From a virus (Duplodnaviria; Heunggongvirae; Uroviricota; Caudoviricetes), in the IMG/VR virus record IMGVR_UViG_2534681674_000009: a stretch of DNA of 24,457 bases; one strand, given 5' to 3'. Positions 3,662 to 17,297 of this stretch are shown one piece after another. The notes beneath the pieces are model-generated. The model ran no database searches. It was not told where the DNA came from and saw only the letters and a list, made by a program, of their open reading frames with translations. A program made the position numbers and the translations under genes. Position 1 is the stretch's first letter. Every line of letters starts with the position of its first letter.

Positions 3662-3937
3662 ATGTCGATGTACACAACCGCCCAGCTGCTGGCGGCAAAT
3701 GAGCAGAAATTTAAGTTTGATCCGCTGTTTCTGCGTCTCTTTTTCCGTGAGAGCTATCCCTTCACCACGGAGAAAGTCTATCTCTCACAAATTCCGGGAC
3801 TGGTAAACATGGCGCTGTACGTTTCGCCGATTGTTTCCGGTGAGGTTATCCGTTCCCGTGGCGGCTCCACCTCTGAATTTACGCCGGGATATGTCAAGCC
3901 GAAGCACTTAGCATGGCTTTCTGAGGCTTTCGTGTAG
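3662..3937 (+). pseudogene. E: Major capsid protein gpE, N-terminal fragment (interrupted after codon ~82 by the integrated element)
   Basis: MSMYTTAQLLAANEQKFKFDPLFLRLFFRESYPFTTEKVYLSQIPGLVNMALYVSPIVSGEVIRSRGGSTSEFTPGYVKPKH matches lambda E residues 1-82; after 3906 the frame reads 9 unrelated codons (LAWLSEAFV) and stops. Confidence 0.9.
3897..3906 (+). repeat. Left junction direct repeat (putative attL core) AGCCGAAGCA
   Basis: Identical 10-mer recurs at 16507-16516; phage-derived sequence ends here on the left and resumes there on the right. Confidence 0.65.
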
Positions 3938-4035
3938 TTGCTGGTTTTTACACTTAATCTTTTGATAATAAAGAATAAGTTTATCTGGTGCTTTCACTGA
4001 ATTTTCCTCGTTATCTGTGTGTTGCAATCATCTCT

Positions 4036-4055
4036 GTATTGCAGCTTGTATTGCT
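4036..4055 (+). repeat. Tandem GTATTGCAG / GTATTGC motifs (putative integrase arm-type sites, left arm)
   Basis: TGTATTGCAGCTTGTATTGC upstream of int; the same motif recurs in tandem at 16409-16432 near the right junction. Confidence 0.4.
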
Positions 4056-4231
4056 TTTTGGGGCTAAAAATGGCTGGCGAGAACAAACTGAGCGACAAAG
4101 CGCTTAAAGGATATCTGGGGAAACCCAGAGAAAAGCAGATCACCATTGCTGATGGAAAGGGGCTTTCTATTCGTGTGAGTACTAAAGGGTGAACCGCCCC
4201 GGGTTTCCTGGAGAGTATTTTATCTGTGAAC

Positions 4232-5122
4232 TCAGGCTGCCAGATCATTATTTCCGATGGAAGCATAATAAGCTTTTTCTGCTTCTGCCGGAGGAATATG
4301 GCCCAGCCTTTCCAGCAATCGTCGATTGTTATACCAGTCCACCCACGTTAGTGTGGCCAGTTCCACTTCTGTCCGGTTTTTCCAGCTATTACGGTGTATT
4401 ACCTCCGCTTTGTAAAGACCATTGATGCTCTCAGCCATCGCGTTGTCATACGAGTCGCCAGTACTCCCTGTTGATGCCAGTAATCCGGCTTCCTTAAGCC
4501 GCTGCGTGTAGGCCAGCGATACATACTGAGAACCTTTATCACTGTGATGGATTGTGCCGGACGGCCGACGGGCCCACAACGCCTGCTCCAGTGCATCCAG
4601 CACGAATGTTGTTTCCATGGATGATGAGACCTGCCATCCCACGATGTATCCGGCGAACACATCAATGATGAACGCCACATAAACGAAGCCCTGCCATGTG
4701 CTTACCCAGGTAAAATCAGCCACCCACAACTGGTCTGGACGTTCTGCCACGAACTGACGGTTTACGCGGTCGCATGCGGCAACGGCTTTCCGGCTGACGG
4801 TAGTGCGGACCTTTTTACCCCGGAGAACACCGGCAAGTCCCATAACTGCCATGAGACGTGCCACAGTGCATCTGGCCACTCTGATACCTTCCCGTAACAA
4901 CTGACGCCAGACTTTACGCACACCGTATACCTGGTGATTTTCATCGTATACGCGCTGTATCTCTTTCTTCAGCCAGTCATCGTGCTGCGCACGGGCACTG
5001 CGTTTATCCGGATGATGTCGCTGTTGCTGACAATGGTAATACGTTGACGGGGCAATATGCAGTTCGCTGCATACCGGTCCGACCCCGTACTGCTCACGCA
5101 GCTTATCCAGCAGTGGCATCAT
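4232..5122 (-). CDS. IS629-like transposase OrfB (DDE catalytic domain; normally made as OrfAB by frameshifting)
   Basis: [53 protein letters not shown]...[22 protein letters not shown]... matches recalled IS629/IS1203 OrfB. Confidence 0.9.
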
Positions 5123-5446
5123 TTTTCCAGAGGCGGTCGAACTCCGCCTTCGCAAAATAAGCGGAAGCCTGGCGAAGGATATCGTTACTGCGGCGCAGTT
5201 CACGATTTTCACGTTCCAGCTCTTTCAGACGCTGACGTTCAGCGCTGGTGAGCCCACCATCACCGCCCCCGGTATCCCGCTCATGCTGGCGAACCCAGAC
5301 ACGCAGAGTCTCCGGCGTACAGCCAATCTTTGGGGCAATGGAACTACGATTGCCGCCCACTGTGAGTCATATTCATCCTGACTTTCCAGAACCATACGAA
5401 TCGCCCGCTGACGGACTTCGGGGGAAAAACGAGTATTTTTAGTCAT
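5103..5446 (-). pseudogene. IS629-like OrfA, apparently frameshifted
   Basis: N-terminal [33 protein letters not shown] is in one frame (5225-5446) and the remainder [30 protein letters not shown]...[10 protein letters not shown] in another (5103-5360); junction near 5345-5350. Confidence 0.55.
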
Positions 5447-6620
5447 CCTGTTTACCTCTTTCTCAGGGAGTTTAGTCTCCAGGATTTCCGGGGCGGTTCA
5501 GGGGCTGTGAGCTTTGTTTTCTTCTACAGGTTAGCAGGTGGCCGGGCTGCTCCGGTCTGGCTAACGTTGGGTAAATATCCTGATATGTCACTCAAACAGG
5601 CAAGGGAAAAGCGCGACGAGTGCCGTGGTTGGTTGGCTGACAAACGTGATCCGCGTATCCAGATTAAGATTCAGGCTGAAGAACGCTTAAAGCCGGTTAC
5701 AGTGGAGGATGCACTAAATTACTGGTATGAAAATTACTGTAAGGTGCGTCGTAAAACTCATGCTGTAACGCTTGGCAGATTTCGAAAGCATATCTTTCCC
5801 TATATCGGTCATTTGCCCGTAAATGACACTCACCTATATGAATGGCTGGACTGTTTTGACCGAATTAAACGTAATGCACCAGTTATGGCGGCGTATGTTT
5901 TTTCTGACACTAAATTAGCTCTTCGTTTTTGTCGGGTACGCCAGTACGCGACGTGTGATGCTTTAAAGGATTTGCGCATGAGTGATGTGGGGCAGATTGC
6001 AGGTAAGCGGGATCGGGTTCTGGATGAAGCCGAACTCGGCCAGCTCTGGAAGGCAATTTTTGTCGAGCCTGATTTAAAACTAATGTCTGAATACACGCGA
6101 AAAATGTTTGTGCTTTGTACAGTATTTGGATGTCGAATGAGTGAAGCCCGATTATCAGAATGGAGCGAATGGAATCTCGAAAGTTGGGTTTGGACTGTAC
6201 CAAAAGATCACTCAAAAACTGGTGTTGAAATCGTCAGACCAGTACCTGAAATTCTACGACAGTGGGTAACGGATGTTCACGAAGAGACAAAACATACTGG
6301 TTATGTGCTGGGAAGTCTGCGAATTAGAGAAAGCGTAAGCAAGATTGGGGGGAAAATCGGTAAACGTTTGGGCCATGAAAAACAATGGTCACTACACGAC
6401 CTTAGAAGAACGCTATCTACTCATCTAAGTGATCTCGGTGTTGAATTTTATGTAGTAGAACAACTGTTAGGCCATGCGCTACCTGGCGTGGCAGGTGTTT
6501 ACAACCGGAGTAAGTTTATGGCTAAAAAACTGGATGCTCTGGAACTCTGGACTACATATCTCAATAGCATCGCAGGTGCTGATTCAAAAGTGACAATCCT
6601 CAAACAAAAGGTTGGTTAAC

Positions 6621-6848
6621 ATGAAAAAAATGGCAATTGTTGATAAAAAGGGTCTGGAGTACATTCCTAACATTGACCGAATGATCCGTGAGAAAGAATG
6701 TCGGGAGCTAACCACTCTTGCGAACAGCACACGCTGGAAGCTGGAGAAGGAAGGAAAATTTCCTAAGCGGATCAAGATTGGTTCCACTGCTGTTGCATAT
6801 CGTCTTTCAGAAGTGCAGGCATGGATTCGAGGTGAGTGGGTAGTTTAA
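6621..6848 (+). CDS. alpA: AlpA-like DNA-binding protein (putative excision/regulatory factor)
   Basis: Small basic ORF directly downstream of int with an HTH-like segment ECRELTTLANSTRWKLEKEGKFPKRIKIGSTAVAYRLSEVQAWI, typical of AlpA/Xis-like proteins next to P4-type integrases; ATG 6621 preferred over TTG 6612. Confidence 0.75.
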   Translation: MKKMAIVDKKGLEYIPNIDRMIREKECRELTTLANSTRWKLEKEGKFPKRIKIGSTAVAYRLSEVQAWIRGEWVV

Positions 6849-6874
6849 ATTATCTCAGAATAAAATATTATGAA

Positions 6875-6908
6875 TTACTGATTTGAGAATTTGTACTCAA
6901 ATCAGTAA
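6875..6908. terminator. Bidirectional hairpin between convergent genes
   Basis: Perfect 13-bp inverted repeat TTACTGATTTGAG ... CTCAAATCAGTAA with 8-nt loop, in an AT-rich spacer between the alpA-like (+) and membrane protein (-) genes. Confidence 0.55.
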
Positions 6909-6917
6909 TAACATTCT

Positions 6918-7454
6918 TTATAAGAGATTAAATCCAAATAAAGAGTAATCATATACCGGGGTGCATTGCATCCCACTGAATATGCTGATGTTTTTTTCTG
7001 TTTCTATCCTTTTTTCAATAAGTTGTTGTATATTTTTACAGTACAATTTGTGTGTGATGTTATTATCGTAAGCCTGATATAGCAACGTCAATGTTGATGC
7101 TATGAAACATGCAGAAAGAAAATGAACTAGTACATGTGAGCGTTTTTTGGTTGTCCATGATGCATTCGCTTGTGAAATATAAATCATTCTGAGAATGATA
7201 ATGATGATAGACAGTAACAGACCACTCAATAAAATAAGTATTGGGTTTGCGTATTTAATTAATGGTTGAGAGCAAAAAACTATTATAGCTCCTGTGACTG
7301 CGTATGAGAAAAAGGAGTAATTAAACTTCTTACTCCTTCTCTCAAGTATTTTAATTTCATCTTGTGTGGGGGTTTTAGATGCCTCTAATATAAGTTTATT
7401 AAATGTTTCTGTTATCTTGTTTTTTGTGTTTGTGGCTATTTTTTTTAGATTCAT
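6918..7454 (-). CDS. Hypothetical membrane protein (AT-rich accessory gene)
   Basis: 178-aa ORF with hydrophobic segments (YSFFSYAVTGAIIVFCSQPL, ILILLSGLLLSIIIIILRMIYI, VLVHFLSACFIASTLTLLY); base composition much more AT-rich than neighbours; no recognisable family. Confidence 0.55.
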   Translation of the reverse strand: MNLKKIATNTKNKITETFNKLILEASKTPTQDEIKILERRSKKFNYSFFSYAVTGAIIVFCSQPLIKYANPILILLSGLLLSIIIIILRMIYISQANASWTTKKRSHVLVHFLSACFIASTLTLLYQAYDNNITHKLYCKNIQQLIEKRIETEKNISIFSGMQCTPVYDYSLFGFNLL

Positions 7455-7804
7455 AGCATTCTAACTCCCTTAACTTATTTATTACTTTCTCTTTATGATA
7501 AGAGAGGGGAATGACTTGGTAAAGTGATTTGTCATTAATAATGATAATCCTTGCGATAAATATTTCTGCAAGTTATTTACCTGTTTGTTGCTATCTTGTT
7601 AAGCGTTGGGTGTGGTTTATGTTTGGAGCGACTTTATTTAATCGTGATTTTATGGATTTATATTTATATCCTGTAAGATAAGCGCATGTTAGTTCAGGAG
7701 TAGTGTCAGATAAAATTATTCGGAGTAGAACTACCTTTTCTGTTTATTGCCAGTATTTACATAGCAATGCGCCGTAGTTACTCACATCACGGCGCTGATA
7801 CTAA

Positions 7805-8110
7805 TTATTCAGATTCTTTGGCTTTACGCCGCTGGAGTTCTTCACGAGCGACGGCTACGAGTTGCCCGATTTCCTCCGCTGCCTTGATGCCGATTTGTTC
7901 GACCTTAGCTAAGGCATCCAGTGAAGACACGAGGGGATTTTCTCCGCTTCCTTCTGCCTGGCGGCGGGCGATTTCACCGCGCATGGCGGTTACGATAAAT
8001 CCGGCATTGCTTTCACCGTCCAGCTTAACGGATTCCATCCCTTGCATAACATCTAGTGGGACTCTGACAGTTGTCAGTTGTGATTTTGCGTTTTTGTTAG
8101 CCGTTGCCAT
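7805..8110 (-). CDS. Hypothetical protein, possible regulator (divergent from downstream operon)
   Basis: 101-aa ORF; sits head-to-head with the 8301+ operon across an intergenic region containing repeated operator-like half-sites. Confidence 0.5.
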   Translation of the reverse strand: MATANKNAKSQLTTVRVPLDVMQGMESVKLDGESNAGFIVTAMRGEIARRQAEGSGENPLVSSLDALAKVEQIGIKAAEEIGQLVAVAREELQRRKAKESE

Positions 8111-8300
8111 TTCTGAAACTCCTAATCATCGGTGTGTTTCAGTATACACAAAAAAAGAAATACAAAAAGCCTTGACGTGTGTTTCATGCGCTCATAACAT
8201 GAAACACACCGAAAGGATTGTTGAAATACAAAGAGCAACGCCCCGCAGTGCTGGGAACACATACGGGGCGTCTAACCAACAACGTAAACTAGGAGCCGTT
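8111..8300. promoter_or_regulatory. Divergent promoter/operator region
   Basis: TTGACG (8172-8177) then 17 bp then TAACAT (8195-8200); three copies of GTGTTTCA half-site (8133-8140 and 8179-8186 direct, 8200-8207 inverted), the latter two forming a palindrome over the -10; also inverted repeat GACGCCCCG...CGGGGCGTC at 8239-8273. Confidence 0.45.
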
Positions 8301-8498
8301 ATGGTTGCTGTAAATCATATACCACACCTTGTACACACACAAACGGCCTTTGTGTGGCGTTTTCTGGCACTGAGTGCCGGAGAATCTCAAATCATCCACG
8401 TAACCGCCTGGACGGAACGCGAAGCGCGTAGCCGTTGCCCGTCCGGTTGTGTTGCTGTATTCGCTGCAAAAATCCGCCAGGGAGTGAGTCATGCTTAA
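8301..8498 (+). CDS. Small hypothetical protein (possibly Icd-like)
   Basis: ATG at 8301 preceded by AGGAG (8291-8295); 65 aa MVAVNHIPHLVHTQTAFVWRFLALSAGESQIIHVTAWTEREARSRCPSGCVAVFAAKIRQGVSHA; family assignment is a weak recollection only. Confidence 0.45.
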   Translation: MVAVNHIPHLVHTQTAFVWRFLALSAGESQIIHVTAWTEREARSRCPSGCVAVFAAKIRQGVSHA

Positions 8499-8676
8499 AA
8501 CCTTCCGTGTATTTGCCCGAGCTGTTAACCCAATAGGCCACACAATTGGTATCGCTCAGAATGTGAAGGCTGTTAATGTTCAGACGGCTATTGCTGCGGT
8601 GAGAAGCGAATCATCAGAATATGGCTTATCACAAGTCATTATTTCAGCAGTGTATGAATTAAAAGAGGTGCATTAA
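8491..8676 (+). CDS. Small hypothetical protein
   Basis: 61-aa ORF whose start overlaps the preceding stop (translational coupling). Confidence 0.4.
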   Translation: MLKTFRVFARAVNPIGHTIGIAQNVKAVNVQTAIAAVRSESSEYGLSQVIISAVYELKEVH

Positions 8677-8834
8677 TGCAGGAAATCACATTACACGAAG
8701 CCGCTGAACGTGCGCACCAGACAGAAATTATTGCCGCCTTCTTGAGGTATACCCGAACAAAATTACAGATGCTGATATATCCGCACTGGCGAGCCTACTG
8801 GCGCGTCTTTCGGGAAGTGTCGCTAGTTTTTTGA
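8676..8834 (+). CDS. Small hypothetical protein (52 aa)
   Basis: ATG at 8676 overlapping the previous stop (TAATG), preceded by a strong RBS AGAGGTG (8664-8670); below the ORF-track length cutoff. Confidence 0.4.
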   Translation: MQEITLHEAAERAHQTEIIAAFLRYTRTKLQMLIYPHWRAYWRVFREVSLVF

Positions 8835-8866
8835 TTGAGGAAGAAAGTAAGCTGGTGGGGGATTAA

Positions 8867-9088
8867 ATGAATACAGAACGGGAAGTCTTTTTTAAATTGT
8901 TAGCATGTGCAGAAAGTTCATTAACTTTAAATAATTCAGCAAAAGCAATATTAAATATGTGGCTTGATTGCATAAATGACAATGAAGATGCAAATATTGC
9001 TTATGGCCTGTTGTCACTTATTGATGAAGCAGCAGAAAAACTCAATGACGCAATAAATAGTGCCCTGCTATCAAATAAGTCGAGTTAA
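8867..9088 (+). CDS. Small hypothetical protein (AT-rich)
   Basis: 73-aa ORF with GGGGGA RBS upstream; no recognisable family. Confidence 0.4.
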   Translation: MNTEREVFFKLLACAESSLTLNNSAKAILNMWLDCINDNEDANIAYGLLSLIDEAAEKLNDAINSALLSNKSS

Positions 9089-9105
9089 GTCGAGGAATAA
9101 ATAAT

Positions 9106-9405
9106 ATGGAAATGAAAAATTCTGGCTTTATTGCCAGCGGCCCCGCTCGGCCTGAATTTATGAACGGCGATATTTACCGCGATAAATACGGCGGCACGGT
9201 AACGATTAAAGGCGTGGCAGAACGGCGCATCACTTACCGTCGTGAGGGGTATAGCTATGACTGCGTGATGCCTGTTTATCAGTTCCGGCGTGATTTTTCC
9301 CTGGTATATGCCGCACCCCGCAGTAAGCCCATCAGCAGGGAAAAAGCGCGGGGAAACATCCAGAAAATGAAAAGCATGATTAACGCATTCAGGGGCAAAA
9401 AATGA
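9106..9405 (+). CDS. Hypothetical protein upstream of primase
   Basis: 99-aa ORF with GAGGA RBS; stop overlaps the primase start (ATGA). Confidence 0.5.
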   Translation: MEMKNSGFIASGPARPEFMNGDIYRDKYGGTVTIKGVAERRITYRREGYSYDCVMPVYQFRRDFSLVYAAPRSKPISREKARGNIQKMKSMINAFRGKK

Positions 9406-11153
9406 AACTGGCACCGAACTTAAAAAAACAGCCACGCGACAGACTGACAGAGATAATCATCTTTGCAGGTAGTGATGCGTGGAGCCATGCGAAAGAGTGG
9501 CAGGAATGGGCGGGTAAACATATTGCCGCCGACGATGTGCCGCCTGTCGTGTTGGCTGATGAGCAACTGAAAAACATCACCGATTACCGGATCATTGATG
9601 AAGATCGTCAGTGTGTGCGTGTTTACCGCGCAGGACATATCACAGAGCACAGCATGACGCAGATTGTTACGTTACTGGCTGTGGCTGGAGTGAAGACCGT
9701 ACACGAATACGCGGGGATTACTGACACCAGCCCAGTGGATTTATCCGACCAGTTGCCGCGACTCAAAGAGGAATGCGAGCGTGGGGAAAGCCTGGTGCTT
9801 AATCTTCCGACGAAGCAAAAGGCGCAACTTTCACAGATGGCAGACAGTGAGCGCGCGCAGCTGCTTGCCGAGCGCTTTGATGGCGTTTGTGTGCATCCGG
9901 AAAGTGAAATCGTTCACGTATGGCGCGGCGGGGTATGGTGTCCGATCAGCACAATGGAGCTGAGCCGCGAAATGGTGGCGATCTATTCAGAGCACAGGGC
10001 CACTTTCAGCAAACGCGTGATCAATAACGCCGTTGAAGCGTTAAAAGTTATTGCCGAACCAATGGGCGAGCCGTCCGGCGATTTGCTGCCGTTCGCCAAT
10101 GGTGCGCTTGACCTGAAAACGGGGGAATTTTCCCCGCACACGCCGGAGAACTGGATCACCACGCACAACGGCATTGAGTACACGCCACCAGCACCAGGGG
10201 AGAACATCCGCGATAACGCGCCAAACTTTCATAAATGGCTTGAGCACGCAGCCGGAAAAGACCCGCGCAAGATGATGCGTATATGTGCCGCGCTGTACAT
10301 GATTATGGCGAACCGGTACGACTGGCAGATGTTCATTGAGGCCACCGGAGACGGGGGAAGCGGTAAGAGTACATTTACCCATATTGCCACCCTGCTTGCT
10401 GGCAAACAGAACACCGTAAGCGCAGAGATGACATCACTCGATGATGCAGGAGGGCGTGCGCAGGTTGTCGGGAGTCGTCTTATCGTCCTTGCCGATCAGC
10501 CGAAATATACGGGGGAAGGCACGGGCATCAAGAAAATCACGGGAGGCGATCCCGTTGAAATTAACCCGAAATATGAGAAGCGATTCACGACGATAATAAG
10601 GGCGGTGGTACTGGCAACCAATAACGACCCGATGATCTTTACCGAACGGGCCGGAGGTGTGTCACGCCGTCGGGTGATTTTCCGGTTCGACAACATTGTA
10701 AGGGAGGACGAAAAAGACAAGGAATTACCGGAAAAGATAGCGGCAGAAATCCCCGTAATTATCCGCCGCTTGCTGGCTAATTTTGCTGACCCTGAAAAGG
10801 CACGGGCTTTATTACTGGAACAGCGTGACGGTGATGAAGCTCTGGCAATAAAGCAGCAAACGGATCCGGTTGTTGAGCTTTGCGCGGCGCTGGAGTTTCT
10901 GGAGGAAGCTCGTGGGCTAATGATGGGCGGTGGTGGTGACACCGTGAAGTACACGACCAGAAACAGCCTTTACCGTGTCTATATGGCCTTCATGGCATAT
11001 ACAGGAAAGGGGAAATGTTTGAGCGTGAATGAGTTCGGAAAGGCTATGAGGTCAGCGGCGAAAGTTTACGGATATGAATATATTACGCGAAAAGTTAAGG
11101 GAGTCACGCAGACCAACGCAACGACTACTGATGATTGCGATGCGTTTTTATAA
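9402..11153 (+). CDS. Primase-helicase, D5 / P4-alpha C-terminal-like (SF3 NTPase)
   Basis: 583-aa ORF with Walker A GDGGSGKST and Walker B-like hydrophobic run ending in D (RLIVLADQ); architecture resembles satellite/P4 replication initiators; immediately followed by iterons. Confidence 0.8.
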   Translation: MKLAPNLKKQPRDRLTEIIIFAGSDAWSHAKEWQEWAGKHIAADDVPPVVLADEQLKNITDYRIIDEDRQCVRVYRAGHITEHSMTQIVTLLAVAGVKTVHEYAGITDTSPVDLSDQLPRLKEECERGESLVLNLPTKQKAQLSQMADSERAQLLAERFDGVCVHPESEIVHVWRGGVWCPISTMELSREMVAIYSEHRATFSKRVINNAVEALKVIAEPMGEPSGDLLPFANGALDLKTGEFSPHTPENWITTHNGIEYTPPAPGENIRDNAPNFHKWLEHAAGKDPRKMMRICAALYMIMANRYDWQMFIEATGDGGSGKSTFTHIATLLAGKQNTVSAEMTSLDDAGGRAQVVGSRLIVLADQPKYTGEGTGIKKITGGDPVEINPKYEKRFTTIIRAVVLATNNDPMIFTERAGGVSRRRVIFRFDNIVREDEKDKELPEKIAAEIPVIIRRLLANFADPEKARALLLEQRDGDEALAIKQQTDPVVELCAALEFLEEARGLMMGGGGDTVKYTTRNSLYRVYMAFMAYTGKGKCLSVNEFGKAMRSAAKVYGYEYITRKVKGVTQTNATTTDDCDAFL

Positions 11154-11164
11154 AAAATGGCAAT

Positions 11165-11400
11165 GGTTATCTACCTTGTCTACCTGACTGAAATAAAATA
11201 CTTTTATTTCAATGTATTAATGCAGGTAGATAACTATTTTTCACTGTCTACCTGTTATCTACCTTATCTACCCATTTTTGTAGACAGGTAAGGAGACGGG
11301 TAGAGATGAGGTAGACAGCTATTTGGGGCTGTCTACCTCCCTGAAACCCGCGCCATTACTGGCCTGATAACTAATCAGGTAGACAAGGTAGACAAGGTGG
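11165..11400. repeat. Iteron cluster (putative origin of replication)
   Basis: At least ten copies of (T/G)TCTACC / GGTAGAC in both orientations (e.g. 11168-11185, 11247-11273, 11280-11318, 11331-11337, 11377-11397) around an AT-rich block (11190-11222), directly downstream of the primase gene. Confidence 0.7.
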
Positions 11401-11442
11401 TGGTGCACAAAAAACTTTTTAAACGAGGGGGTAAAAATAAAA

Positions 11443-11685
11443 ATGCACACATCAGGAAAACTGAACAAACATATAAAGCCACATTACCGCGCCCTTGATA
11501 TGGCTGAACACTGGCTAAGGGTGGCGATTAAGGCAATAGACCGCAACGCCGGGGAAGGATACGCGAAAGCACATCCCGAACTGATAAGCGCATTCATGAC
11601 AACGGCGGCTGCAAACTTTGCCACGCTGACCGAACGGGAGATTGCCGAAGCGGAGGAAGTGACAACCATCAATATTAAGTCCTGA
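11443..11685 (+). CDS. Hypothetical protein
   Basis: 80-aa ORF with GAGGGGG RBS upstream. Confidence 0.45.
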   Translation: MHTSGKLNKHIKPHYRALDMAEHWLRVAIKAIDRNAGEGYAKAHPELISAFMTTAAANFATLTEREIAEAEEVTTINIKS

Positions 11686-11696
11686 GAGCAGGCAGC

Positions 11697-12146
11697 ATGA
11701 CGGCGCAAATAGCAGCTTACGGGCGGCTGGTGGACGACCCACAGGTAAAACATACCAGCAAGGGAACACCCATGACACTGGCACGGATGGCGGTATCTTT
11801 GCCATGCAGCCAGGCAGATGACGGAACGGCGACGATGTGGTTATCTGTGCTGGCGTTTGGCAGACAAGCCGACACGCTGGCAAAGCATCACAAAGGCGAA
11901 CTCCTGAGCGTGGCGGGTAATATGCAGGTGAGCCAGTGGACTGGACAGAACGGTGAAACGCGGCAGGGCTGGCAGGTTATCGCAGACAGCGTAATCAGTG
12001 CGCGAACGGTGCGACCGGGCGGCAAAAAAGATCAACAGGGTCAGGCTACTGACGCACTGAACAGAGCAAAACAACAGGCAGATCAGCAAGGAAGCCATCC
12101 ACCAGTGGGAGATAATGAGCAATGGGGAGATGATATTCCGTTTTAA
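11697..12146 (+). CDS. ssb: Single-stranded DNA-binding protein
   Basis: 149 aa with OB-fold-like N-terminal part, Gly/Gln-rich linker and acidic C-terminal tip ending DDIPF, the hallmark SSB tail. Confidence 0.8.
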   Translation: MTAQIAAYGRLVDDPQVKHTSKGTPMTLARMAVSLPCSQADDGTATMWLSVLAFGRQADTLAKHHKGELLSVAGNMQVSQWTGQNGETRQGWQVIADSVISARTVRPGGKKDQQGQATDALNRAKQQADQQGSHPPVGDNEQWGDDIPF

Positions 12147-12163
12147 ATATTGCCAATAAAAAA

Positions 12164-12190
12164 GGCCGGAAAAAAAAATAAATTTTCCGG
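12164..12190. terminator. Hairpin after ssb (possible terminator)
   Basis: CCGGAAAA ... TTTTCCGG stem with A-rich loop; A/T-rich on both sides. Confidence 0.35.
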
Positions 12191-12365
12191 CATGCTACAT
12201 AAATCCAGACCAAAGGGAGTGAAGATATTAACACTAATTATCCGTGCTGAAGTTGTCATCCCAAAACTTTATACAACATTGCACTCGGTTGCATGTATTC
12301 GCATGACAAATATCGGTGATAGCATATATCCACAATTATTTTTAATGAATGCAAAGAGGATGCGT

Positions 12366-13406
12366 ATGGTTGATTTATATTCGCCTACCCAGCTTGTACA
12401 GGTGGTTAATGCTGTAGATGTACAAAAACAACTAAATGCGTTGTTTACCAGTTTGTTTTTTACTCGCTCGGTAATGTTTGAATCGCGCGATATTATTCTT
12501 GATACAATCGACGATCCAAATATCCCAATTGCAGCGTTTTGTTCTCCTATGGTGGGTAGTAAAGTTTCACGTGACGAAGGGTACGAATCAAAAACAATTC
12601 GTCCAGGCTATATGAAGCCGAAAAGCAGCATTGATCCAAATAAGTTAGCTGTGCGCCCTGCTGGTGTATCACCTGAGCAATACAATGCTTTTGGAGCGCG
12701 TAATATTAAAGTTAAACAGGCGATTGTAAATCAGGCTAAAGCTATTCGTGCACGTATTGAATGGCTTGCCGTTCAGGCAATCACAACGGGGAAAAATATC
12801 ATTGAGGGCGATGGTATTGAACGTTATGAGCTGGACTGGAATATTAAACCACAAAATATCATCACTCAGTCTGGCGGTGCTGAGTGGTCAGGTAAGGATA
12901 AAGAAACTTTTGATCCAAATGATGATATTGAGAGCTACGCAGAATTTAGTGAGGGCGTCACTAATATCATCATTATGGGCGGTAATGTATGGAAGAAATA
13001 CCGTTCATTCAGAGCGATAAAAGAGGCTCTGGATACCCGTCGTGGTTCTAATTCCGAACTGGAAACGGCCCTTAAAGACCTTGGTGATTCGGTGAGTTTT
13101 AAAGGGTATATGGGCGATGTTGCGATTGTTGTATACAGCGGGCGTTATACCGACGAGGACGGAACTGAAAAACATTTCCTTGATCCTGATTTGATGGTGC
13201 TTGGCAATACGGCTCTTCAGGGGATTGTCGCCTATGGCGGTATTCAGGATCCGGAGCTAATCCGAATGGGGCTGACTAAAGCCGAACTTGCACCGAAAAA
13301 CTATATTGTGCCTGGTGATCCGGCTATTGAATATGTGCAGACACATTCAGCACCACAGCCAATACCGGCCCGCATCAATCGTTTTGTTACCGTTCGCATT
13401 GGCTAA
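12366..13406 (+). CDS. Major capsid protein, lambda gpE homologue encoded by the element
   Basis: Start at ATG 12366 (RBS AAGAGG 12354-12359). Product aligns along its length with lambda E, e.g. ITQSGGAEWSGKDKETFDPNDDIESYA...RRGSNSELETALKDLGDSVSFKGYMGDVAIVVYSG vs lambda ITQSGGTEWSKRDKSTYDPTDDIEAYA...RRGSNSELETAVKDLGKAVSYKGMYGDVAIVVYSG; clearly a diverged paralogue, not a duplicate. Confidence 0.85.
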   Translation: MVDLYSPTQLVQVVNAVDVQKQLNALFTSLFFTRSVMFESRDIILDTIDDPNIPIAAFCSPMVGSKVSRDEGYESKTIRPGYMKPKSSIDPNKLAVRPAGVSPEQYNAFGARNIKVKQAIVNQAKAIRARIEWLAVQAITTGKNIIEGDGIERYELDWNIKPQNIITQSGGAEWSGKDKETFDPNDDIESYAEFSEGVTNIIIMGGNVWKKYRSFRAIKEALDTRRGSNSELETALKDLGDSVSFKGYMGDVAIVVYSGRYTDEDGTEKHFLDPDLMVLGNTALQGIVAYGGIQDPELIRMGLTKAELAPKNYIVPGDPAIEYVQTHSAPQPIPARINRFVTVRIG

Positions 13407-13415
13407 GGGGGAGCA

Positions 13416-13757
13416 ATGGCTACTCATTACACTGAACTCATGTCTGGCACTGAAGCACTGGTTACTACGCTGGGGATATTTTCAGCCAATAAAGGGGTAA
13501 TACCTGCGTTTACGCCACTGATGCAGGAAGATGCAACTGGTGCGCTAGTGGTATGGGATGGAACGAGCGCAGGCAAAGCGGTTTATGTTTCCGCTGTACA
13601 AATCGACACAGCGAAAAAAACACAGGCACAGGTTTATAAGACAGGTGTTTTAAATGTTGATGCTCTGAACTGGCCTGAGTCTGTAAGAGAACTGTCGGCA
13701 AAGGTTGCCGCGTTTGTTGGCTCAGGTATTTCTGTTCAGCCGCTGGCTCGTGTGTAA
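13416..13757 (+). CDS. Head decoration protein, lambda gpD homologue encoded by the element
   Basis: 113 aa; ...LVVWDGTSAGKAVYVSAVQ...YKTGVLNVDALNWPE...AAFVGSGISV parallels lambda D ...[19 protein letters not shown]...[15 protein letters not shown]...[11 protein letters not shown]; RBS AAGGGGGA. Confidence 0.8.
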   Translation: MATHYTELMSGTEALVTTLGIFSANKGVIPAFTPLMQEDATGALVVWDGTSAGKAVYVSAVQIDTAKKTQAQVYKTGVLNVDALNWPESVRELSAKVAAFVGSGISVQPLARV

Positions 13758-13768
13758 AGGGGGATACA

Positions 13769-14152
13769 ATGCAGAATGATTACAATGACCTTAAGCCAAT
13801 TGCCGAAATGATGTACCCGAATCCAGCTGTAGAGGAATTAAAAGCTATCGCTGACAAAATGTGTTTAAGCGAGCGCCTTGTTGATATGAATCAGGTGATG
13901 GAAATTACAACCCTGAGTCGGCGTACACTGCTAAACCTTGAGGCTAGTGGAGAGTTCCCGGAGCGTGTGCAGGTTACGGAAGGGCGTAAGGCCTGGTATT
14001 TAAGTGAAGTGATCGACTGGATAAATAATATTCCTCGCGCTTCTGAATATTGCCGCGTACCTGTCCCAAAAAAGCCAGATGCGGCGCTATGCCTCAAGAT
14101 TGAGCGTGTACGCCGCAATGCACGGGATGGTCGCTATAAGCTGATTGGTTGA
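13769..14152 (+). CDS. Second AlpA-like HTH protein
   Basis: 127 aa; segment MNQVMEITTLSRRTLLNLEASGEFPERVQVTEGRKAWYLSEVIDWINN resembles AlpA/MerR-type HTH; RBS AAGGGGGA. Confidence 0.6.
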   Translation: MQNDYNDLKPIAEMMYPNPAVEELKAIADKMCLSERLVDMNQVMEITTLSRRTLLNLEASGEFPERVQVTEGRKAWYLSEVIDWINNIPRASEYCRVPVPKKPDAALCLKIERVRRNARDGRYKLIG

Positions 14153-14194
14153 TGAAATTAGGGCCCGCTCTGGCTGGCGGGTCCTTTCCGGCGA

Positions 14195-14340
14195 TCTGAC
14201 AGGCTACGGGGCGTCAGGCGCGCGGGTTTTCTCTATTTATGAGCATTTTAAGGGGACTGGTGGTGGTTTTGTTGTTCGCTATATCTGTATGAATAATAAG
14301 AGAAAAATACAATCAATACACCAACCTGAAACAGTAATTA
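14195..14340 (+). other. cos site (cosN plus cosB-like region) of the element
   Basis: GACAGGCTACGGGGCGTCAGGCGCGCGGGTTTTCTCTATTTATGAGCATTTT closely parallels recalled lambda cos GACAGGTTACGGGGCGGCGACCTCGCGGGTTTTCGCTATTTATGAAAATTTT; lies directly upstream of a Nu1-like gene as in lambda. Confidence 0.65.
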
Positions 14341-14353
14341 AGTTGTGGTATCA

Positions 14354-14896
14354 ATGAAATTACACCTGATGAACAAAAAAAACATGGCAAAAAGTTGCCG
14401 TGTAAGCGCCACTGCGTTCGATAAGTGGGGAGTGATTCCCGTCGAGCGTAAGGGCCGTGAGGCGTTCTATGATGTTGCCAGTGTAATAGATAATCGGGTT
14501 AACAATGCAATCAGCCAGATTACAAACGAAACGGGCGATATTGATGACGATGAACTTTTACGCGTCAGGATCAGATTACTGACAGCACAGGCAGAGGCGC
14601 AGGAGCTTAAAAACGAGCGCGAACGCGGCGACGTTATTGATACAGAGTTTTGTATGTATGTTCTTTCCAAACTGGCGAGTCAGATTTCATCTATCATGGA
14701 CAGCCTGCCGCTTACCATGCAAAGGCGCTTCCCACAGATGACTCCGGCTATGCTGGATGGACTTAAAAAGGAAGTGGCTAAAGCCTGTAATGCCAGTGCC
14801 GGCGTTGCTGACAACCTCCCACAGATACTGGCTGATTATCTGATGGAAAGTACAGGAAACGTACCGGATAAGTTGCAGCTGAATAAGGATAAGTAA
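14354..14896 (+). CDS. Terminase small subunit, lambda Nu1-like
   Basis: ...RLLTAQAEAQELKNERERGDVIDTEFCMYVLSKLASQISSIMDSLPLTMQRRFP matches lambda Nu1 ...RLTRAQADAQELKNARDSAEVVETAFCTFVLSRIAGEIASILDGLPLSVQRRFP; start codon uncertain (ATG 14354, 14369 or 14384). Confidence 0.8.
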   Translation: MKLHLMNKKNMAKSCRVSATAFDKWGVIPVERKGREAFYDVASVIDNRVNNAISQITNETGDIDDDELLRVRIRLLTAQAEAQELKNERERGDVIDTEFCMYVLSKLASQISSIMDSLPLTMQRRFPQMTPAMLDGLKKEVAKACNASAGVADNLPQILADYLMESTGNVPDKLQLNKDK

Positions 14897-14907
14897 CGTA
14901 GTACGCT

Positions 14908-15183
14908 ATGACTGAATCCGAACTACTGAAAGTAATCTGCTATGCTGGTGGAGTCAGCCACCAGCATGACGAACAGGCCACGCAGCCGGGCAGTGTCACC
15001 GCTGAAAATTACGCTCGTGTGGTTGCTGAGGTTATGTGGCGTGACGGTATAGAACTGAACGGACAGGATTGCTTAGTCATCCGCACCAAAGTGCTGGCTA
15101 TACTGGCAGCTAGGCGGAGGCAGGGACAACGCCAGAACGTTGCATCGTACCAGTGGAAGAAGCCTGACAGACTGCGGCGATAA
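14908..15183 (+). CDS. Hypothetical protein downstream of terS
   Basis: 91-aa ORF; no recognisable family; weak RBS. Confidence 0.35.
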   Translation: MTESELLKVICYAGGVSHQHDEQATQPGSVTAENYARVVAEVMWRDGIELNGQDCLVIRTKVLAILAARRRQGQRQNVASYQWKKPDRLRR

Positions 15184-15337
15184 CTCTTTGATTTTCTCGA
15201 CGGCCCCAAAATGGGCCTTACCATAGCCAGCTAATAAATGAGCAAGCCTCAAAAGTGAGGTTTGTGGCCGTTTGGCCTATTCATATGCTAACTCGTTGAT
15301 ATTCCTGACGACGCAAATTTACGCCTTGTGGCTGGTA

Positions 15338-15363
15338 GTCGAATTGCAAATTTGCAACTCGAC
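15338..15363. promoter_or_regulatory. 26-bp near-perfect palindrome (putative operator)
   Basis: GTCGAATTGCAAATTTGCAACTCGAC, self-complementary except one position pair; intergenic between the terS module and the Abi-like gene. Confidence 0.35.
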
Positions 15364-15585
15364 TATGAAACTACAGGTAGTTTGGGTAGTAAAAGCAACA
15401 CACTGATTTTGGGGCTTCTTCGCGATACCTAATATTATGGTATCGGTGGAAGAGATATCGTTTCTCATAGGTTAGCACCGAGGGCGGAGTTCCGCCCTCA
15501 TCGAAAAATTGCTTACGAGTCGTCAAAATAAATTAATCGACTGAGTATAATGATTAACTAATTGCTCGTGTTACTTCATTATACG

Positions 15586-16347
15586 TTATTTCCCATCTTT
15601 AAGGTTTAACCAAGTGTTAATTAAAAAAAGAGCCATTGAGCCTGATAAATTTACTGCAAGTTCGGCATGCCTTGGGGATGGCTTAATTGATGAGCTGTTC
15701 GTTCCATGTGCATCACCGAGTTTATTACGAAGAGTACCTAACCCATTTACAACTGCAGAACAACCGCCGAGAATTTGTTTGAAGATATTTTCAGTATGTT
15801 GGTCGGCAGATAGGTTAAGTTCTTTTGAAAGAGTTTTATAAAGCTCTGACATTTCAATATTTTTATTATTATACTGAATGCCCATATCATCAAGAATGTG
15901 TTTGCAAACTGTTTCAAGAAGTGTTCTTGCGGAGGTTATCGCACCATCCGGATCTGTATGGCGCCGTTCAAGTGCTTTTATCCAAACGGCGTGGACTCCA
16001 TCCTCGTTAAACTTTCTTAATACATCAGATATGTCTTCATCCGCTGGAGCTTTATTTTTCCCTTCTAGATAGTCCAGCATCGGCTGAAATGCCTTATAAA
16101 TCAAATCTCTCCGGGGGGCATACTTTTCAGTCTTTTTTATAAATCCCCAAAATTCTTTTAGTGAGCGATTAGTTCTCACAAACTCTGGTAATAGCTGATG
16201 TAAAGGAGGATTTTGTAAGAAATATGTTCTTAGAAGCAAATAATCATTATTAGCTTCATCCTGGGCTCCTGTAGCTCTTGCAATTAGTATGTTTTGAAGC
16301 GCTACTGCGCGCTCTAGGTCATTTTGAAGGGTATCTATAATATTCAT
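15586..16347 (-). CDS. Abi-like protein with HEPN-type Rx4-6H motif (putative abortive-infection / defence effector)
   Basis: 253-aa ORF on the opposite strand at the element's right end; C-terminal LGTLRNKLGDAHG contains R-x6-H as in HEPN/Abi_C family proteins. Confidence 0.55.
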   Translation of the reverse strand: MNIIDTLQNDLERAVALQNILIARATGAQDEANNDYLLLRTYFLQNPPLHQLLPEFVRTNRSLKEFWGFIKKTEKYAPRRDLIYKAFQPMLDYLEGKNKAPADEDISDVLRKFNEDGVHAVWIKALERRHTDPDGAITSARTLLETVCKHILDDMGIQYNNKNIEMSELYKTLSKELNLSADQHTENIFKQILGGCSAVVNGLGTLRNKLGDAHGTNSSSIKPSPRHAELAVNLSGSMALFLINTWLNLKDGK

Positions 16348-16408
16348 AACAAATCTTTATTCACTTCATTTGTGGGTTGATAATTGAATGGTTTGTACAT
16401 TGATTTCT

Positions 16409-16432
16409 GTGTATTGCAGTGTGTATTGCAGC
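16409..16432 (+). repeat. Tandem GTGTATTGCAG repeats (putative integrase arm-type sites, right arm)
   Basis: GTGTATTGCAGTGTGTATTGCAGC, same motif as at 4036-4055. Confidence 0.4.
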
Positions 16433-16506
16433 ATAGCCATTCAGGTAAAGATTATGCTCTATTTTTCCTCTTATATCATTCACATACTTACACCATTGAC
16501 TCATGT

Positions 16507-16516
16507 AGCCGAAGCA
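16507..16516 (+). repeat. Right junction direct repeat (putative attR core) AGCCGAAGCA
   Basis: Identical to 3897-3906; downstream sequence TGAGGTGAATCCGCAGATGACC continues lambda E. Confidence 0.65.
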
Positions 16517-17297
16517 TGAGGTGAATCCGCAGATGACCCTGCGTCGCCTGCCGGATGAAGATCCGCAGAATCTGGCGGACCCGGCTTACCGCCGCCGTCG
16601 CATCATCATGCAGAACATGCGTGACGAAGAGCTGGCCATTGCCCAGGTCGAAGAGATGCAGGCAGTTTCTGCCGTGCTTAAGGGCAAATACACCATGACC
16701 GGTGAAGCCTTTGATCCGGTTGAGGTGGATATGGGCCGCAGTGCGGCAAACAACATCACACAGTCCGGTGGCACGGAGTGGAGCAAGCGTGACAAGTCCA
16801 CGTATGACCCGACCGACGATATCGAAGCCTACGCGCTGAACGCCAGCGGCGTGGTGAATATCATCGTGTTTGATCCGAAAGGATGGGCGCTGTTCCGTTC
16901 CTTCAAAGCCGTCAGGGATAAGCTGGATACCCGTCGCGGCTCTCATTCCGAGCTGGAGACAGCGGTAAAAGACCTGGGCAAAGCGGTGTCTTATAAGGGA
17001 ATGTATGGCGATGTGGCCATCGTCGTGTATTCCGGACAGTACGTGGAAAACGGCGTCAAAAAGAACTTCCTGCCGGACAACACGATGGTGCTGGGGAACA
17101 CTCAGGCACGCGGTCTGCGTACCTATGGCTGTATTCAGGATGCGGACGCACAGCGCGAAGGCATTAACGCCTCTGCCCGTTACCCGAAAAACTGGGTGAC
17201 TACCGGCGATCCGGCGCGAGAGTTCACCATGATTCAGTCAGCACCGCTGATGCTGCTGGCTGACCCTGATGAGTTCGTGTCCGTACAACTGGCGTAA
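16507..17297 (+). pseudogene. E: Major capsid protein gpE, C-terminal fragment (codons ~80-341)
   Basis: (PKH)EVNPQMTLRRLPDEDPQNLADPAYRRRRIIMQNMRDEELAIAQVEEMQAV...EFTMIQSAPLMLLADPDEFVSVQLA, near-identical to lambda E from residue ~83; no in-frame ATG, upstream in-frame TAG at 16506-16508. Confidence 0.9.

Follow-up and report, generated by a model that had tools for sequence, protein, structure and literature searches.

The closest described systems are the helper-embedded PICIs, whose attachment regions carry the doubled motif tgTGTATTGCantgTGTATTGCa (Tommasini, Mageeney and Williams, 2023, NAR Genom Bioinform 5:lqad036; PMC10111431). In 491 of these elements the motif is present twice in the same orientation, at 81 ± 2 bp on the upstream side of the attP centre and at 132 ± 2 bp on its downstream side (PMC10111431). 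Which protein binds it was left open, the proposals in print being integrase (Int) via its arm domains, AlpA or an unknown protein, and the TGTATTGC motif was stated to be absent outside helper-embedded PICIs (PMC10111431). The Int clade of these elements is nested in a larger one that comprises PICI integrases and P4 (PMC10111431).

Short direct repeats that flank the core and lie off the crossover are also found in the P and P′ arms used by lambda Int and in the P′ sites of KplE1 IntS. There an N-terminal arm-binding domain recognizes them, and a domain of the same class is predicted here. The lambda arm sites are laid out as two plus three, whereas here each arm has one pair with a 12-bp period, making four half-sites in total. 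In KplE1, the arm sites in attL are immediately upstream of int and overlap the intS promoter, with negative autoregulation, and the P′ sites have the conserved motif TAAA (PMC2951348); the sequence of TGTATTGC is unrelated to it. The integrases of satellite P4 and of CP4-type elements share the domain architecture (Arm-DNA-bind_3, the same as DUF4102) and an int that is transcribed away from the adjacent att site. Their targets, however, are tRNA genes and those discussed here are prophage late genes, and the arm word here is clade-specific.

The motif and the idea that integrase binds it have been in print since 2023. What we add are other doubled words in sister clades, including one fis PICI, and a comparison of protein domains that favours Int over AlpA. 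The present locus matches the published elements in class, in motif sequence, in having two co-oriented copies at the 81 and 132 bp distances, in an Int of the same clade accompanied by AlpA, and in its target, a lambda-E-type capsid gene, which is the most frequent one. It differs in that int is split by an IS3-family element and in carrying an AbiJ-like cargo gene.

The element and its crossover

The window, by which we mean the whole stretch of 24,457 nucleotides analysed, contains at 3897-16516 a helper-embedded PICI satellite that interrupts the major capsid gene (lambda E type) of a lambdoid prophage (Table 1). Portal, protease and decoration genes precede the capsid gene and tail genes follow it, and int is on the same strand. 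The satellite itself has the disrupted int, alpA, DUF4222, a D5-type primase, SSB, an E-like capsid protein, a D-like decoration protein and a Nu1-like small terminase. The order fits the layout of helper-embedded PICIs: an integration zone with a clade-specific tyrosine integrase and alpA, then replication and late zones.

The 5′ part of the capsid gene is annotated as a truncated major capsid protein at the identical junction in a related locus, L001, and the 5′ and 3′ parts are contiguous in genomes that do not have the element. The uninterrupted attB is present in E. coli strain 2 HS-C. A three-way alignment of attL, attR and this empty attB places the crossover switch at the 10-bp block AGCCGAAGCA. 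The earlier note on this DNA had used the end motifs in support of the element boundaries, and the splitting of the capsid gene at the identity block, together with the empty attB, bears this out. A tRNA gene was considered as the target, but none was found, and the target is a protein-coding late gene.

Table 1. Coordinates of the features discussed, in positions of the window
Feature	Position	Strand	Basis or remark
5′ part of helper prophage major capsid gene (lambda E type)	3662..3906	+	cut by insertion
attL copy of crossover identity block AGCCGAAGCA	3897..3906	+	longest word common to both junctions
IHF-consensus match TATCAAAAGATTA, tentative	3955..3967	-	between core and left doubled motif
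Degenerate third half-site TGTGTTGCA	4018..4026	+	TGTRTTGCA search
Left (attL, int-proximal) doubled motif	4033..4055	+	half-sites TGTATTGC at 4035-4042 and 4047-4054
int, first 40 codons (start of Arm-DNA-bind_3 domain)	4070..4189	+	equals start of intact 411-aa Int of L001
IS3-family IS (IS629/IS1203-like, 1311 bp)	4190..5500	.	terminal inverted repeats; interrupts int after codon 40
int remainder (core-binding and catalytic)	5504..6619	+	Pfam Phage_integrase, Phage_int_SAM_3, rest of Arm-DNA-bind_3
alpA (Phage_AlpA family regulator or excisionase)	6621..6848	+	Pfam PF05930, E=2.8e-15
AbiJ-like accessory gene, variable cargo	15586..16347	-	Pfam Abi_C; PADLOC AbiJ E=2.2e-21
Right (attR) doubled motif tgTGTATTGCagtgTGTATTGCa	16408..16430	+	half-sites at 16410-16417 and 16422-16429
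attR copy of identity block AGCCGAAGCA	16507..16516	+	same shared-word and three-way alignment basis
3′ part of helper major capsid gene	16518..17297	+	continuity with empty attB

Copies of int that agree with the present one to at least 98% at the DNA level occur in 175 E. coli genomes. In the intact homologue (WP_000896725.1, strain FDAARGOS_1296), Pfam recognizes Arm-DNA-bind_3 with E=3.7e-19; the N-domain extends from residue 1 to about residue 95, and solved N-domains of CP4-like integrases in the PDB (3ju0, 3jtz) match residues 17-98. The interrupting IS is flanked by a 3-bp target duplication, GGG (4187-4189 and 5501-5503), and E. coli records that match it are annotated as IS3-family, IS1203 or IS629. 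The int of L001 is uninterrupted at this position, and the exact int::IS junction was found in none of 5426 complete E. coli genomes. Since int is split after codon 40, the recombination sites are intact yet unusable without Int supplied in trans. At the other end, the AbiJ-like gene adjoins the right doubled motif. It is absent from L001, and the two sequences differ up to about 12 bp before that motif.

A search with the IHF consensus WATCAANNNNTTR gave three matches in the window against 0.87 expected, among them the one between core and left motif. This match recurs in L001 but is absent from relatives at the ClpP site, and the right arm has none; we therefore do not regard it as a conserved feature of the arms.

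Form and conservation of the doubled motif

The doubled motif consists of two TGTATTGC half-sites with a 12-bp period, and the window has two copies, both on the plus strand. The earlier note had placed the left string TGTATTGCAGCTTGTATTGC at 4036-4055, about 20 bp before int. The motif is indeed there and upstream of int, but it runs one base to the left (4035-4054), and 15 bp separate its end from the int ATG at 4070. The right string GTGTATTGCAGTGTGTATTGCAGC was found exactly where it had been reported (16409-16432), in the same orientation as the left one and with the attR identity block 75 bp further on. The right pair proper (16410-16429) is 77 bp from that block. From the centre of the crossover block, the left pair starts at 132.5 bp and the right pair ends at 81.5 bp. 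Compared with the published tgTGTATTGCantgTGTATTGCa, the right copy agrees everywhere, lower-case positions included, and the left copy agrees with both cores.

The pattern GTATTGC-N5-GTATTGC has exactly two matches in the window, the left and right sites and no others, where 0.01 is expected, and none of the shuffles reached two. For the single 9-mer GTATTGCAG with one mismatch allowed, six matches in the window compare with 6.06 expected, that is, there is no enrichment. How rare the motif is elsewhere in the window depends on its form: the doubled form is confined to the two ends and the single word is at shuffle frequency, so that the doubled form alone is informative. A relaxed word, TGTRTTGCA, has four matches in the window against 0.65 expected and uncovers a third, degenerate copy, whose counterpart reads GCGTTGCA or GCGTTGCG in loci L003 to L006. 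Over 849 kb (the window and related loci), all 23 doubled matches are co-oriented with int and 21 are at one of the two expected positions.

The earlier note had proposed comparing the ends of related elements. The motif is kept at both ends across genera and targets. In L001 it has the same orientation and the same 12-bp period at both ends despite different cargo, and in other genera (L004, L005) it persists although the stretch that separates motif and core has diverged. It is likewise kept where the target is a TerL gene (L002) or that of a ClpP-type protease (L003, L006, L037), the Ints of relatives with other targets being 50-53% identical. Altogether, 13 integrase subclades that use different target genes have the motif unchanged. 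A further GTATTGC copy abuts the core in the ClpP-site attR of L003, but relatives keep only TTGC and we rejected it as a fifth arm site. Searching in reverse, by the motif alone, gave 80 loci in viral contigs: in 31 an Int of the clade starts at most 130 bp downstream, 22 resemble known attR junctions, and about 31 are matches in unrelated contexts, such as tandem repeats in coding sequence.

Sister clades have other words in the same form. Elements of Xenorhabdus and a fis PICI of Rahnella have a doubled TGTATAAA and the Shewanella sister clade a doubled GGGGTACAT, in each case with a 12-bp period and just upstream of int. In Xenorhabdus, TGTATAAA is repeated at the far end of L024, L032 and L040; for the Shewanella clade and the Rahnella fis PICI, no far-end copy was found within the sequence available for each. 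In L032 the two copies are about 134 and 77 bp from the crossover, the same spacing as in the published elements. L024 and L040 were excluded from distance measurements; AATATCAA, considered as their att core, is, on comparison with L032, probably not the crossover but an element of the arm that is conserved. The tRNA-Ile PICI around L003 has GGTATCCT doubled at both ends, with a period of about 11 bp. We do not use this PICI as a case of a doubled motif without alpA, and hence as evidence against a directionality factor, because it has an HTH_17 excisionase-like gene.

We lean, by a modest degree, to the view that the arm-site word has been re-coded several times in the P4-related Int clade (TGTATTGC, TGTATAAA and GGGGTACAT, with GGTATCCT in the more distant PICI) while the architecture stayed fixed. 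This would comprise one pair with a 12-bp period just upstream of int (in the case of GGTATCCT, about 11 bp) and, for each far end that was mapped, another pair close to it, with the N-domain of Int as the reader. Where they could be measured (the TGTATTGC and TGTATAAA types), the distances from the crossover are about 77-81 and 132-136 bp.

Candidate readers of the motif

The two TGTATTGC pairs are probably the arm-type sites of a helper-embedded PICI attP, separated into attL and attR upon insertion in the helper's major capsid gene. Of the explanations considered, this reading, already offered in the earlier note, is the best supported by the sequence comparisons: the repeats are on both arms, are distinct from the core sequence, and are conserved with, and change with, the integrase lineage.

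The domains of Int point the same way. For 13 Int representatives less than 85% identical to one another, all sharing the motif, the N-domain has an identity of 0.67-0.68, compared with 0.54 for the core-binding and 0.48 for the catalytic domain. The N-domain is the least conserved part of Int when the Shewanella clade is compared with either the TGTATAAA or the GTATTGC clade (0.33-0.40 vs. 0.44-0.57). This does not hold between the GTATTGC and TGTATAAA clades, which have TGTAT in common in their words (about 0.50-0.53 vs. 0.43-0.49). Arm-DNA-bind_3 is present in all Ints compared. The N-terminal arm domain thus appears to track the motif better than AlpA does and is favoured as the binder, with the proviso that int and alpA are neighbours and are inherited jointly, so that covariation cannot fully separate the two, and that the wing and parts of the helix-turn-helix of AlpA are moderately conserved (0.54).

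That the doubled motifs are AlpA sites, which bend both arms or control int and late genes while Int acts at the core only, is the next explanation to weigh, and we consider it unlikely. In all GTATTGC-type elements for which an ORF downstream was identified, alpA follows int. Tandem direct repeats are typical of excisionase sites (lambda Xis, TorI), and the repeats here fit that pattern. AlpA has been listed as a possible binder and described as tightly conserved (PMC10111431). Yet the motif is invariant over subclades where AlpA is less conserved than the Int N-domain (mean identity 0.49 vs. 0.67). The start of the second helix of AlpA is nearly unconserved at 0.26 (ANSTRWKL, GRRHRSLL, DSQYIRKL and SQAGLYRA among elements with one and the same motif). 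We take this helix to be the recognition helix, by analogy with Xis/TorI-like winged-helix proteins. Moreover, directionality factors usually bind on one arm, whereas here identical pairs are on both, at fixed distances from the crossover, and four half-sites fit a tetramer of a heterobivalent Int with an arm-binding domain.

Less probable still is that the motifs are operators of some other regulator, such as a repressor of the satellite, a protein of the helper phage or a host factor, which would control int at the left end and the outward-facing accessory gene at the right one, their position near the ends being incidental. The left pair is directly before int, and the right pair sits between a weak promoter-like site on the minus strand (16479-16451) and the start of the AbiJ-like gene at 16347. 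The right pair, however, is retained in L001 and in many elements that do not have the AbiJ-like gene, and it is not until about 12 bp ahead of it that the window and L001 become homologous again. A transcriptional operator would have no need of distances to the crossover that are fixed to about 2-5 bp on either side. A host factor is also made unlikely by single Xenorhabdus strains that carry elements of both motif types, each paired with an Int clade of its own. Chance similarity, or a functionless remnant of duplicated sequence, might be suspected from the shuffle-level frequency of the single 9-mer and from the unrelated contexts of some of the viral-contig matches, but it is refuted for practical purposes by the expectation of 0.01 for the doubled form in the window and by conservation at both ends over genera and target sites despite diverging flanks.

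Recombination, int expression and wider meaning

With Int as the reader, each protomer of an Int tetramer would bind one of the four half-sites through its N-terminal Arm-DNA-bind_3 domain, while the core-binding and catalytic domains would work at the AGCCGAAGCA crossover region. The spacing of about 81 and 132 bp would let the arms fold onto the core to form the recombination complex that integrates the element and, together with AlpA, excises it. As the left pair comes to within 15 bp of the start codon of int, bound Int may also lower its own expression, by analogy with KplE1 IntS. No good match to a sigma-70 promoter was found overlapping the left motif (4033-4055), and the motif itself is therefore unsupported as a promoter. 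The sole sigma-70-like consensus match near int (3947-3976, 9/12) is weak and lies upstream of the motif. Without an overlapping promoter, autoregulation would need a roadblock or action on late read-through from the helper, and int may be transcribed from such read-through instead.

Because the central observation is already in the literature, current understanding is unchanged. In practice, the doubled motif is a quick and specific delimiter of helper-embedded satellites: two co-oriented copies about 10-15 kb apart bracket the element, and the crossover can be placed to within a few bases. In the present copy, where the recombination sites are intact but int is broken by the IS, the satellite can probably no longer leave its site, so that the capsid gene of the helper remains split. 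If the words have been re-coded as proposed, the clades would offer a natural swap series for arm specificity, and the doubled motif would be general to these satellites and not, as published, unique to helper-embedded PICIs. If the arm domain of integrase reads the motif, the fixed arm geometry would help explain how one intasome scaffold is kept within the clade, with the core-binding and catalytic domains drifting to new prophage late-gene targets under that constant scaffold.

The satellite and its doubled motif

A lambdoid prophage head-to-tail late region fills the window, and its lambda-E-type major capsid gene is broken up by a 12.6-kb insert, the satellite. The unbroken gene (attB) is found in E. 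coli strain 2 HS-C. In a three-way alignment attL tracks attB as far as a 10-bp identity block, and attR tracks attB from the block on. The insert carries a tyrosine integrase gene (int) and then alpA, a DUF4222 gene, a D5-type primase, SSB, its own E-like capsid, D-like decoration protein and Nu1-like small terminase, and at the right end an AbiJ-like gene. The satellite encodes its own E-like capsid and sits in the helper E gene, so the helper gene that it breaks is a homologue of one of its own. The same is seen again in two relatives, L002 (within TerL) and L003 (within a protease-capsid fusion). The AbiJ-like abortive-infection gene (Pfam Abi_C; PADLOC AbiJ, E=2e-21) is variable cargo, with unrelated sequence in its place in the related locus L001.

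Features of the satellite and its junctions
Feature	Position	Strand	Remark
Helper capsid gene, 5' part	ends 3906
Helper capsid gene, 3' part	starts again 16518
Junction identity block AGCCGAAGCA	3897-3906 and 16507-16516		10 bp, common to both junctions
Weak promoter-like site	3947-3976
IHF-consensus match TATCAAAAGATTA	3955-3967	-	midway from core to left doubled motif
Degenerate third copy TGTGTTGCA	4018-4026
Left pair of TGTATTGC half-sites	4035-4054	+	12-bp period
IS3-family element (IS629/IS1203-like)	4190-5500		1311 bp; GGG target duplication
Satellite capsid, decoration and small terminase genes	12150-14896
AbiJ-like gene	15586-16347	-	between satellite late genes and right motif
Right pair of TGTATTGC half-sites	16409-16432	+	12-bp period

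The earlier note had proposed that a motif is repeated in the same orientation near both ends, and this is confirmed: the doubled motif, GTATTGC-N5-GTATTGC, has two matches in the window, one at each end, against 0.01 expected by chance. The right site was correctly placed in that note; the left one is present, one base from the 4036-4055 assigned to it. Rarity elsewhere holds for the doubled form and not for the single 9-mer GTATTGCAG, which at one mismatch or fewer occurs six times in the window against 6.06 expected; TGTRTTGCA occurs four times against 0.65.

The motif itself is not novel. Tommasini, Mageeney and Williams (2023; PMC10111431) described these integrases as one clade using 14 sites, of which capsid gene E is the commonest target, and reported that each attP carries the doubled motif tgTGTATTGCantgTGTATTGCa twice in one orientation, with one copy 81 ± 2 bp upstream of the attP centre and the other 132 ± 2 bp downstream. 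As the distances in the window are 81.5 and 132.5 bp, and the right copy (16408-16430) agrees with the published string at all positions, the finding is a rediscovery. The four half-sites were suggested to bind the arm domains of an Int tetramer, with AlpA or an unknown protein as alternatives; the arm-site interpretation in the earlier note is thus the leading hypothesis already published. Our additions are modest: the differing doubled words of sister clades, with a fis PICI among their members, and a domain-level argument for Int over AlpA. On fis PICIs the published work states only the absence of the TGTATTGC motif.

Conservation among related elements

Of 5426 complete E. coli genomes, 175 have this int at a DNA identity of 98% or more. 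In L001 the element occupies the same site, its int is intact and its right-end cargo differs; the match to the window picks up again only about 12 bp ahead of the right motif, and both motifs are kept. At the same capsid site in Kosakonia (L004) and Cedecea (L005), both pairs are kept despite diverged DNA between motif and core. The same pairs lie at both ends of L002, a capsid-forming satellite within a prophage TerL gene, and of L003, L006 and L037, satellites nested in another PICI, inside its ClpP-type protease gene, the Ints of these four being only 50-53% identical. Across 849 kb (the window and L001-L049), all 23 doubled matches point the same way as int; 21 of them occupy the two expected positions, and the remaining two adjoin int remnants.

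In the reverse test viral contigs were scanned with the motif alone, giving at least 80 loci, of which 80 were read. Among these 80 matches listed, a clade Int starts within 130 bp downstream in at least 31, recognisable attR junctions are present in at least 22 (capsid 9, TerL 6, ClpP 4, another site 3), and the remaining 31 fall in unrelated settings, for example coding tandem repeats. The tandem-array contigs are false positives of a motif-only search. In unrelated viral contigs, L097, L128 and L122 among them, TGTATTGC is part of longer arrays of 12-bp period; giant-virus MAG labels are attached to the array contigs L067, L077 and L097, and L128 is a fourth such match.

(GTA)TTGC comes before the attR core ATGATGATCCA of ClpP-site elements (L003 26181-26201; also L006, L037, L066, L104, L106). 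Because only TTGC is conserved there, it may belong to the core-type site rather than to an arm site.

Sister integrase clades, taken from the genome scan, have a doubled word just upstream of int, with the same 12-bp period and a different sequence. Most Xenorhabdus elements (L014-L048) and a Rahnella fis PICI (L009) have TGTATAAA(C/T) doubled some 20-50 bp before int. Three Xenorhabdus elements (L024, L032, L040) have the word near the far end as well, and in L032 the two distances are about 134 and 77 bp. In Shewanella (L035, L036, L038), whose N-domain shares only some 35% identity with the other clades, GGGGTACAT is doubled at -48 and -36 from int; no far-end copy was found within 11 kb. 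The L003 satellite is nested in a tRNA-Ile PICI, which has a distantly related Int of 473 aa and GGTATCCT doubled at both ends (GGTATCCTATAGGTATCCT, L003 8916-8940 and 29294-29315).

Int or AlpA as reader of the motif

All compared integrases have an Arm-DNA-bind_3 domain, and solved N-domain structures of CP4-like integrases match residues 17-98. Among 13 Int representatives below 85% identity, all with TGTATTGC, mean pairwise identity is 0.67-0.68 in the N-domain, 0.54 in the core-binding and 0.48 in the catalytic domain. Between the TGTATAAA and Shewanella clades the pattern within Int is reversed, with 0.33-0.37 in the N-domain, 0.57 in the core-binding and 0.53 in the catalytic domain; between the GTATTGC and Shewanella clades the N-domain is at 0.36-0.40, against 0.50 and 0.44 for the rest. 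The GTATTGC and TGTATAAA words have TGTAT in common, and between their clades the N-domain (about 0.50-0.53) and the rest (0.43-0.49) are conserved to a similar degree. Within Int, the N-domain is thus the best conserved region among proteins that share the motif, and the worst conserved between clades whose motifs differ most. AlpA in the same elements is at 0.49 overall and at 0.26 where helix 2 begins; that helix is presumed to be the recognition helix on the model of Xis- and TorI-like proteins. These values make the Int N-domain a likelier reader than AlpA, although, int and alpA being linked, the preference is one that we infer. A host factor is argued against by the presence of both motif types within single Xenorhabdus strains, each paired with its own Int clade. 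The sequence comparisons thus support the arm-type sites proposed in the earlier note.

Integration, int expression and fate of the satellite

With Int as the reader, the four N-domains of a tetramer would hold both arm pairs, and the core-binding and catalytic domains would exchange strands within the identity block. The span between the pairs, fixed at about 212-214 bp, fits an intasome scaffold kept constant as specificity at the core shifts towards new late-gene targets.

Since 15 bp separate the left pair from the int ATG, Int bound there would probably lower int expression, a prediction made by likeness to KplE1 IntS, for which such an effect was shown (PMC2951348). The only promoter-like site found upstream is weak, and int mRNA could alternatively come from read-through of helper late transcription. 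The IHF-consensus match overlaps this site and is not conserved in ClpP-site relatives.

In the window int is split after codon 40, within the arm-binding domain, by the IS3-family element; L001 has uninterrupted sequence, and the int::IS junction was not found among the 5426 complete E. coli genomes. As the recombination sites are intact and int is broken, the satellite is probably locked in, immobile unless Int is supplied in trans, and the helper capsid gene would then remain split.
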